DNA from: Bacteroidota bacterium
Lineage (GTDB): Bacteria; Bacteroidota; Ignavibacteria; OLB7
Length of the DNA stretch: 64,000 nucleotides
Direction of reading: 5' to 3'
Assembly (NCBI GenBank): GCA_048498995.1
Contig: JBEHWX010000013.1
Span: 19,437 to 83,436 of the forward strand
In this document: positions 28,262-31,431 of the stretch, piece after piece
How the letters are laid out: every line of letters begins with the position of its first letter
How positions within the stretch are numbered: the first letter of the stretch is position 1
The notes under the pieces: model-generated
Told to the model about the DNA's origin: nothing
Database searches by the model: none
What the model saw: only the letters and a program-made list of their open reading frames with translations
Translations under genes and position numbers: made by a program

Positions 28262-29857
28262 ATGCAACGGCGCTCCTTCCTTCAGCTCGGATCTCCCGGG
28301 TCACCGGCGTCCGCCCCTCCGGCGACCCGCGACCATTCCGGGATCGACGGCATCACGGTCAGGATCAGCACGGCCGGGCTCGAGCCCTATGTCCCCTCCG
28401 GGGAGCGCCCCTGGAGCGCGCGCCGAGCCGCCCATCTGCTCCGCCGCGCCGGATTCGGCGTCACCTCCGCGGAGCTCGACGCCGCGCTCGCCTCCACCCC
28501 CGAGGCGGTCATCGCCGGCCTCCTCGGCTCGACGACGCCGGCCGGCACCCCCGGCTCCTGGACCGCGCAGACGCCGTTCACCAACGAGACCGAGGCCACG
28601 CGGGCGCAGTACGCCGCCTGGCTCCGCGATCTGCAGGAGTGGTGGCTCACCGCCATGCTCGATCGTCGGATGATGCTGCGCGAGAAGATGGTCCTCTTCT
28701 GGCACAACCACTTCGTCAGCGACGCCACCGAGGTGATGGTGGCCCAGTACATGTACCGGCAGAACGAGCTCTTCCGGGAGCTTGCCGCCGGCGACTTCCG
28801 GGAGCTCGCCACCCGCGTCACCATCGACCCGGCGATGCTGATCTACCTGAACGGCGACGACAACAAGGCCGGCAACCCGAACGAGAACTACGCGCGGGAG
28901 CTGCTGGAGCTCTTCACGCTCGGCGCCGGCGCGTACGACGACGGCACGCCGCACTACACCGAGCGGGATATCATCGAGCTGGCCCGCGCGCTCACCGGCT
29001 GGACGGTCAACGCCGGCGCCATGGCCGGCGAGTTCAGGCCGCCCCGCTTCGACGGAGGGCAGAAGACGATCCTCGGCGCCACCGGCAACTTCGGCGTGGC
29101 CGGAAAGACGCCGGACGACGTGATCGCCACGATCCTCGCCGCCGTCGATCGAGACCACGCGCTACCTCGCGCCGCGATCTTTCTCTGCTCCAAGCTCTAC
29201 CGCCAATTCGTCCACGACGTTCCGGACATCCCGGTGGTGGTGGAGATGGCGCGCGCCCTCGTTGACGGCAACTGGAGCGTGGATCGCGTGATCCTGAGGC
29301 TCCTGGCCAGCGCGCACTTCTTCGACGACAACGTGATCGGCGCGCGGATCAAGAGCCCGGTCGAGCTCGTGGCCGGCGCGTTTCACGAGCTCGGGCTGGC
29401 GCCGGTCTGGGCGCGGAACAACCAGGACCCGACACGCCTCGAGACGCACGACGCGGTGACCGCCACGACGAATCTGGCGCAGCGCCTTCTCTACCCTCCC
29501 AACGTGAAGGGATGGCCGGGAGGACGTGCCTGGATCAGCAGCGCCACGATCCCCCTCCGGATCCGCTACGCGCGGCTCTGGATCGAGCCGATCGCCGGTT
29601 CGCTGCAGAACGGCTTCGACCCGGTCGCGTGGGTGAAGCGACTCCCGGAACCAACGAAGGTCCGCTCCGTGCTCGACCGGATGATCGCGCTGCTGCTGCC
29701 GCTCGACGTGAGCCAGCAGACCTACGCGCTGCTGCTGGACGAGCTGCTCGCCGGCGGCCCCGAGTACGACTGGAACCCCGACGCGCCGAACGCCGCCTCC
29801 CGGATTCGGGCCTGTCTGATCCGGATCACCGGCCTCGCCGAATATCAGTTGACGTAA
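28262..29857 (+). CDS. DUF1800-family protein (Tat-type signal)
   Basis: MQRRSFLQLG twin-arginine-like motif. Conserved DUF1800 blocks (RRAAHLLRRAGFG, WHNHF, NENYARELLELFTLG). Confidence 0.8.
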   Translation: MQRRSFLQLGSPGSPASAPPATRDHSGIDGITVRISTAGLEPYVPSGERPWSARRAAHLLRRAGFGVTSAELDAALASTPEAVIAGLLGSTTPAGTPGSWTAQTPFTNETEATRAQYAAWLRDLQEWWLTAMLDRRMMLREKMVLFWHNHFVSDATEVMVAQYMYRQNELFRELAAGDFRELATRVTIDPAMLIYLNGDDNKAGNPNENYARELLELFTLGAGAYDDGTPHYTERDIIELARALTGWTVNAGAMAGEFRPPRFDGGQKTILGATGNFGVAGKTPDDVIATILAAVDRDHALPRAAIFLCSKLYRQFVHDVPDIPVVVEMARALVDGNWSVDRVILRLLASAHFFDDNVIGARIKSPVELVAGAFHELGLAPVWARNNQDPTRLETHDAVTATTNLAQRLLYPPNVKGWPGGRAWISSATIPLRIRYARLWIEPIAGSLQNGFDPVAWVKRLPEPTKVRSVLDRMIALLLPLDVSQQTYALLLDELLAGGPEYDWNPDAPNAASRIRACLIRITGLAEYQLT

Positions 29858-29892
29858 CCCCTCACTCACCGGAAACGGACGGACGAACAGCG

Positions 29893-31431
29893 ATGCAACG
29901 ACGAGATTTCCTGAAGCGAGGCGCCCTGGCGGGCGCGGCTCTCCCGCTAGCCGGCGGCAGGCTGTTCGCGCGTCCGCTGGCGCCGGCGTTCTTCTCCCGC
30001 CCCGCCGCGCTCGGCGACCGGGTGCTGGTGCTGATCAATCTGAACGGCGGCAACGACGGGCTCAACACGGTGGTCCCGGTGAACGATCCGGCCTACCACA
30101 ACGCGCGCAAGACGATCGCCCTGAAGGCGCCGGATCTGGTGAAGATCACCGACGATCTGTCGCTGCACGGCTCGATGGCGCGCTTCGGCGAGCTCTACGG
30201 CCAGGGGAGCTGCGCCGTGGTGGAGAACGTCGGCTATCCGGATCAGGACCGCTCGCACTTCCGCTCCACCGACATCTGGCACAGCGCGTCGCGCGCCGAT
30301 CAGGTGCTCTACACCGGCTGGCTCGGCCGCTACCTGGCCACGTCCCACCCGGAGTATCCCGCCACGCTGCCGCGCGCGCCGTTCGCGATCCAGGTGTCCC
30401 CGAGCACGTCGCTGGCGCTCGAGAGCGAGGTCGGGGGGATGGGGATCGCGATCGACAATCCGGACCGGTTCTACTCGCTGGCGAGCGGCCTCAAGGTCGA
30501 TCCGGAGCCGCTTCCGGCCACGCTCGCCGGGCCGGAGCTGGAGTTCGTGCGGGAGGTGATCGAGCAGTCGAATTACTATTCGGCGGAGGTGAACAAGGCG
30601 ATGCTCGGCGGATCGACGAACGCGCAGTACGACGGCGATCCCCTCTCGGCGCAGTTGCGGGTGGTGGCCAGGCTGATCAACGGCGGGCTGCGGACCGGCA
30701 TCTTCGTGGTCGCGCTCCCCGGCTTCGACACGCACGTGGCGCAGCTGGTGCCCCATGCGCAGCGCCTGCAGTGGGTGTCGCGGAGCGTCGGGAACTTTCT
30801 GGATGATGTGGCCGCCGCCGGCAACGGGGACCGCGTGGTGGCGATGACCTATTCCGAGTTCGGGCGACGGTTGAACGAGAACGGATCGGCCGGCACCGAC
30901 CACGGCGCCGCCGCTCCTCTCTTCGTCCTCGGCCGGAAGGTCCGCGGCGGGCGCATCCTCGGCGGCGCGCCGAACCTGACCGACCTGGACGATCGTGGGG
31001 ACGTGAAGTTCGCGGTCGACTTCCGGCAGGTGTACGCGACGATACTCGAGGACTGGATGGGGTTCAGCGCCGCCGACACGGCCACCGCGCTCGGCGGGGA
31101 GTTCCCGAAGCTCGACCTGTTCGAGACGGCGCCGTCGGCCGCGCCCTCGGAGCGCGATGCCGAGCGTGACGGGCTTGCGATGTCGGAGCCGTGGCCCAAT
31201 CCCGCGTCCGGCTCCGCGACGGTGGCCTTCACGCTCCCGGAGCAGTGCCATGTACGGCTGAGGGTGGTCGACATGCCCGGCGCGACGCGCCTGGTCGCGA
31301 TCGACCGGACCGTCGAGGCGGGATCCCATCGGGTCACGCTCGATCTGAAGGGACTCGGCTCGGGATCATACGTGGCGATGCTGGAGGCGGGGCGCCGTCG
31401 GATACTGCGAGCGCTCGTCGTGGCGCGTTGA
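29893..31431 (+). CDS. DUF1501-family (sulfatase-like) protein with Tat signal and T9SS-type C-terminal sorting domain
   Basis: MQRRDFLKRGALAGAAL Tat motif. DUF1501 blocks (NGGNDGLNTVVP, DQDRSHFRSTDIWH, GTDHG). Last about 80 aa WPNPASGSATVAFTLPEQCHVRLRVVDMPG...SGSYVAMLEAG...LVVAR matches the Por_Secre_tail pattern. Start at ATG 29893. Confidence 0.8.
   Translation: MQRRDFLKRGALAGAALPLAGGRLFARPLAPAFFSRPAALGDRVLVLINLNGGNDGLNTVVPVNDPAYHNARKTIALKAPDLVKITDDLSLHGSMARFGELYGQGSCAVVENVGYPDQDRSHFRSTDIWHSASRADQVLYTGWLGRYLATSHPEYPATLPRAPFAIQVSPSTSLALESEVGGMGIAIDNPDRFYSLASGLKVDPEPLPATLAGPELEFVREVIEQSNYYSAEVNKAMLGGSTNAQYDGDPLSAQLRVVARLINGGLRTGIFVVALPGFDTHVAQLVPHAQRLQWVSRSVGNFLDDVAAAGNGDRVVAMTYSEFGRRLNENGSAGTDHGAAAPLFVLGRKVRGGRILGGAPNLTDLDDRGDVKFAVDFRQVYATILEDWMGFSAADTATALGGEFPKLDLFETAPSAAPSERDAERDGLAMSEPWPNPASGSATVAFTLPEQCHVRLRVVDMPGATRLVAIDRTVEAGSHRVTLDLKGLGSGSYVAMLEAGRRRILRALVVAR

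Follow-up and report, generated by a model that had tools for sequence, protein, structure and literature searches.

A DUF1501 protein with a Tat-type N-terminus and a T9SS-type C-terminal domain, encoded beside DUF1800

Described T9SS cargo is all Sec-signalled (PMC10202324), and present descriptions of the system make Sec the sole way into the periplasm. Gingipains and F. johnsoniae ChiA end in a beta-sandwich of ~80 aa of the PF18962/TIGR04183 type, and canonical type-A cargo combines this C-terminal sorting domain (CTD) with a Sec signal. Export by Tat followed by a separate outer-membrane step is described for Pseudomonas aeruginosa PlcH and PlcN, which then leave by Xcp type II secretion (T2SS) without a linear signal. 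In the Tat hitchhikers HybO-HybC, DmsA-DmsB and PaoABC, one subunit has the RR signal and the product of the adjacent gene has none; in PaoABC, the signal-less subunit is exported bound to the RR-bearing subunit (PMC4273604).

The DUF1800/DUF1501 pair is widespread and uncharacterised. A twin-arginine motif on DUF1501 was noted earlier in other phyla (PMC5122149, PMC3542564). The DUF1800-DUF1501 and PSCyt-DUF1501 modules of Proteobacteria and PVC bacteria share their Pfam families and their arrangement as an operon pair with the locus described here. However, they are without a T9SS domain, whereas the FCB-group clade adds the CTD and its DUF1800 has mostly lost the signal.

We analysed a 64-kb window (the whole stretch of DNA, 64,000 nucleotides) in which a DUF1501 protein shares the terminal beta-sandwich with gingipains, ChiA and six other proteins of the window. 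The latter, like canonical type-A cargo, have a Sec signal, whereas that of DUF1501 is Tat-type. Compared with PlcH and PlcN, both the family (PF04185 against PF07394 for DUF1501) and the phylum differ, and the outer-membrane step of DUF1501 would use a C-terminal T9SS sorting domain. The DUF1800/DUF1501 pair has the gene pattern of the hitchhikers, an adjacent partner without its own signal; in contrast to those redox enzymes, which stay in the periplasm or membrane, DUF1501 is hydrolase-like and its sequence provides for another secretion step. Our literature searches covered T9SS cargo that depends on Tat, the function of DUF1501 and DUF1800, T9SS together with PhoX/PhoD, and T9SS in Kapabacteria; none gave a report of a protein with both Tat signal and CTD. 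The combination is really at odds with what is written on T9SS. On balance, we favour a reading in which DUF1501 would be a metallo-enzyme exported by Tat and then by T9SS, with DUF1800 carried along. The features are as follows.

28262..29857, + strand: partner gene of the DUF1800 family; 531 aa, largely alpha-helical, no CTD
28262..28333, + strand: vestigial twin-arginine N-terminus of DUF1800, MQRRSFLQLGSPGSPASAPPATRD; RR-x-F-L motif without hydrophobic core
29858..29892, + strand: intergenic spacer, 35 nt; DUF1800 and DUF1501 probably one operon
29893..31431, + strand: DUF1501 gene; 512 aa plus stop
29893..29982, + strand: region of the Tat-type signal peptide (residues 1 to ~30), with a QRRDFLK motif, an h-region rich in Gly/Ala and a c-region Arg
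30013..31128, + strand: catalytic domain of alkaline-phosphatase-superfamily fold, residues 41-412; candidate ligands and nucleophile D55, S121, D279/H281 and D336/H337
31183..31428, + strand: type-A T9SS C-terminal sorting domain, residues 431-512; beta-sandwich

The gene pair and its DUF1800 member

The ORF at 29893..31431 is a DUF1501 gene, as the preliminary description had named it (80.8 bits with PF07394, gathering score 27), and each peptide string quoted there was found in the 512-aa translation. The nearest database protein (P0001) has 99% identity. A longer ORF from 29512 was rejected as the DUF1501 start because it overlaps the DUF1800 gene, and DUF1501 orthologues start with M-x-R-R. 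Hence, we take 29893 as the true start.

The upstream gene matches the DUF1800 family at 322.9 bits. DUF1800 lies directly upstream of DUF1501 in 79 of 82 loci, and the tight spacing is kept in other genomes (gaps often 2-100 nt). No terminator-like site was found between the two genes; a sigma-70 promoter scan of the locus found nothing, which says little because promoters of FCB bacteria are of other types. The two genes are probably one operon. Among the long DUF1501 variants, we found no DUF1800-DUF1501 fusion (Rosetta stone).

The DUF1800 protein had been described as having a Tat-like start (RRSFLQLG) and no CTD. Both the motif and the lack of a CTD are there, and a CTD was found on DUF1800 in 0 cases among the related loci and homologues surveyed, but the start is a remnant and not a full signal. 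The best 10-mer hydropathy after the RR motif is 0.2, the maximum of the first 35 residues (0.74) falls downstream of the post-motif stretch, and scans of this N-terminus with TIGR01409 and PF10518 gave no match. Other DUF1800 proteins are similar. No possible signal peptide was found in at least 64 of 71 DUF1800 genes, even with the search extended upstream as far as the preceding stop codon; 51 had nothing, 13 had RR only, 5 had a full Tat signal and 2 were possibly Sec-like. For 114 homologues, the corresponding counts were 47 with none, 54 with RR only (the class without an h-region, to which the DUF1800 of the window belongs), 12 with a full Tat signal and 1 probable mis-start.

In the reading that we favour, DUF1800 would bind DUF1501 in the cytoplasm and cross the inner membrane as a hitchhiker on the DUF1501 signal. 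A hitchhiking DUF1800 would account for the strict retention of the Tat signal on DUF1501. Taken alone, this step is tentative, and we put it somewhat short of probable.

Alternatively, DUF1800 may act in the cytoplasm as a maturation factor or as a chaperone that binds the signal, in the manner of TorD, NarJ or anSME, preparing DUF1501 and staying behind after its Tat export. Remnant RR motifs on non-exported proteins serve as chaperone-binding sites, for example in NarG, and the remnant on DUF1800 is in line with such a role, as is the lack of any signal on ~90% of DUF1800 proteins. The conserved His/Glu-rich motifs FWHNHF and NENYARE could also mean an enzymatic role. However, 5-12% of DUF1800 proteins have their own complete Tat signal and at least one is Sec-like, and these act extracytoplasmically; at 450-600 aa, DUF1800 is also much bigger than known Tat chaperones. 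We consider a chaperone that stays behind to be rather unlikely.

The Tat-type N-terminus of DUF1501

The DUF1501 protein starts with MQRRDFLKR, and Q-R-R-D-F-L-K at residues 2-8 fits the twin-arginine consensus (S/T)-R-R-x-F-L-K. The twin-arginine motif claimed for this protein is thus present, and TIGR01409 (TAT_signal_seq; cut-off 16.7) scored 20.5 bits on residues 1-45. The rest of the region is also of Tat type, with a weakly hydrophobic h-region and a basic c-region. The hydropathy of the h-region is 1.84, whereas the window's other six CTD-bearing proteins, all with classical Sec signals and no Tat HMM match, have 2.5-3.2. The c-region has R23 and R27, and 78% of the aligned sequences have R or K in column 27. 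A basic residue in the c-region is a classical Sec-avoidance feature of Tat signals. The predicted signal-peptidase site is ambiguous (P-L-A, then Pro), and residues 1-39 are disordered in the AF2 model.

In a 63-sequence alignment of DUF1501, R3 and F6 never vary, R4 is conserved at 75% and L7 at 79%, while the h-region columns diverge and are merely 33-49% conserved. Hence, the conservation pattern argues against a twin-arginine motif that arose by chance.

The RR motif could nevertheless be incidental or promiscuous, an inherited family trait on a protein that Sec exports unfolded. TIGR01409 on full-length DUF1501 (15.9 against 16.7 bits) and PF10518 (a weak 13.1 against 22.7) are both sub-threshold, the second Arg is lost in some orthologues (Spirosoma, Runella), and reviews state that T9SS cargo depends on Sec. 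We judge this quite improbable given the retained R3, R4, F6 and L7 in an otherwise divergent signal region, the low hydropathy of the h-region and the basic residue that follows it; a partner gene without a signal is also hard to reconcile with Sec export. In the Spirosoma, Runella and Cytophagaceae orthologues, R-[KHAQ] replaces RR and the DUF1800 is still without a signal, which fits hitchhiking only if the single Arg is still functional. R-[SN] also replaces RR in some DUF1501 homologues.

The C-terminal domain and the predicted catalytic core

The preliminary description had also claimed a tail of ~80 aa like Por_Secre_tail, and the CTD HMMs bear this out. PF18962 (gathering score 27) gave 26.8 bits on full-length DUF1501 (E 6.5e-6) and 31.9 on residues 427-512 alone, and TIGR04183 (cut-off 23) gave 15.2 and 20.1 bits, respectively. 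The domain runs to the last residues of the protein. In the AF2 model, it is a beta-sandwich of six strands (DSSP) at 441-510 with pLDDT of about 90 (86-95), separated by a linker from the alpha/beta domain. The tail also matches the CTD regions of models for T9SS-dependent M6 and M36 proteases. Hence, DUF1501 has the terminal domain and the fold of type-A cargo, with a Tat-type signal where that cargo has an N-terminal Sec signal.

Precomputed annotation places PF18962 on most DUF1501 orthologues. In long variants of the protein, Big_9, cadherin, fn3, ricin-lectin or dockerin modules are inserted ahead of the CTD, a style typical of surface or extracellular enzymes.

Six further ORFs in the window carry type-A CTDs, and the DUF1501 tail shares their profile. 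Such proteins are mostly Sec-type in the flanking DNA of related loci as well (12 of 13 other CTD proteins). With seven CTD proteins in 64 kb, the organism presumably has a T9SS. The low-GC region between 48 and 57 kb was rejected as an rRNA operon, as Rfam gave no more than one tRNA in the window; CTD proteins are clustered there.

It is very improbable that the beta-sandwich is a binding or Ig-like module on a Tat substrate that stays in the periplasm, as DUF1501 proteins without a CTD would: the TIGR04183 score below cut-off, the 0.2 bit by which PF18962 in context falls short, the FlgD_ig-like similarity of the tail, the absence of T9SS genes from the window and the CTD-less orthologues in the same phyla would allow it, but the position at the extreme C-terminus, the PF18962 score above threshold when the domain is scanned alone, the alignment with the M6 and M36 protease CTDs, the profile common to the six Sec-type proteins and the extracellular-type modules ahead of the domain in long variants argue against it.

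Between the two ends, the AF2 model has an alpha/beta domain at residues 44-410 with the core fold of the alkaline-phosphatase type. D55, S121, D279, H281, D336 and H337 lie where expected along the sequence and do not vary. S121 is likely the nucleophile, and D55, D279/H281 and D336/H337 are likely metal ligands. DUF1501 is predicted to be a metal-dependent hydrolase or transferase of phospho- or sulfo-esters, in the alkaline-phosphatase superfamily with an NPP/PafA-like core. Sequence identity to the NPP, PafA and PhoK phosphodiesterases/phosphatases and to the Tat-dependent PhoD and PhoX is 9-16%. The apparent nucleophile also differs in context: the Ser of DUF1501 lies in an R-S-H-F-R-S-T-D motif, whereas NPPs have T-F-P-N-H. 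PDB sequence searches with DUF1501, DUF1800 and a DUF1501 profile gave no real match besides a marginal one of the DUF1501 CTD to chain 8glk_D.

Relatives and the proposed export route

We surveyed DUF1501 homologues clustered at 50% identity and found RR and CTD together in 111 of 150 cluster representatives. Of the 117 N-complete representatives that bear a CTD, 111 keep RR, as do 54/58 CTD-bearing orthologues from species-representative genomes. The lineages with both include Kapaibacteriota, Ignavibacteria, Rhodothermales, Balneolaceae, Saprospiraceae, Chitinophagales, Flavobacteriaceae and Marinimicrobia, and CTD-bearing forms are almost confined to the FCB group; orthologues without a CTD occur within the same phyla. 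RR with CTD is thus the rule in this DUF1501 clade across lineages that have a T9SS. The preliminary description had held the pairing to be unusual, which stands as far as published accounts of T9SS are concerned; it is not peculiar to this locus but marks a large family that domain databases already show.

The pairing recurs in a second, unrelated metalloprotein family. An intradiol-dioxygenase-like protein in one related locus (L045) has TAT_signal, Dioxygenase_C and Por_Secre_tail matches, a hint that metalloproteins may more generally take a Tat-to-T9SS route.

Within the 64-kb window, we found neither tatA/tatC nor genes for T9SS machinery (SprA, PorV, PorU, GldKLMN). Hence, the Tat and T9SS pathways are assumed for the organism. 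Searches with E. coli queries found no TatC in the window or the 82 related loci; these loci hold one TatA-like ORF, 4 kb from an RR+CTD orthologue (L044).

Judging from its sequence, DUF1501 is most likely a Tat-then-T9SS cargo in place of a canonical Sec-then-T9SS one. It would fold and take up metal in the cytoplasm, and the twin-arginine signal would send the folded protein through the Tat translocase to the periplasm, from which the CTD-bearing protein would be delivered to the surface by T9SS. Here, we infer both routes, the metal loading and the DUF1800-DUF1501 complex. The earlier proposal that a folded or cofactor-bound protein is exported and then delivered to the surface is thus supported as a reading of the sequence. 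If it is true, T9SS also takes cargo that is folded with its cofactor in the cytoplasm, as T2SS does with PlcH. A further step, in which the DUF1800-DUF1501 heterodimer would cross both membranes piggyback, first on the Tat signal and then on the CTD via the SprA translocon, is unlikely; if true, the heterodimer would be the first known case of T9SS cargo that depends on Tat, and the first that is hetero-oligomeric.

For the DUF1800/DUF1501 pair, the favoured reading supplies a testable cellular address (the cell surface in FCB bacteria) and a probable quaternary arrangement (a signal-less partner carried by a signal-bearing enzyme), and it gives DUF1501 a testable catalytic class (NPP/PafA-like metallo-esterase). 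Cultured, genetically tractable carriers of the architecture include Chryseobacterium gleum, Spirosoma linguale, Aquimarina amphilecti and Polaribacter porphyrae, and through such relatives the export question is accessible to experiment.

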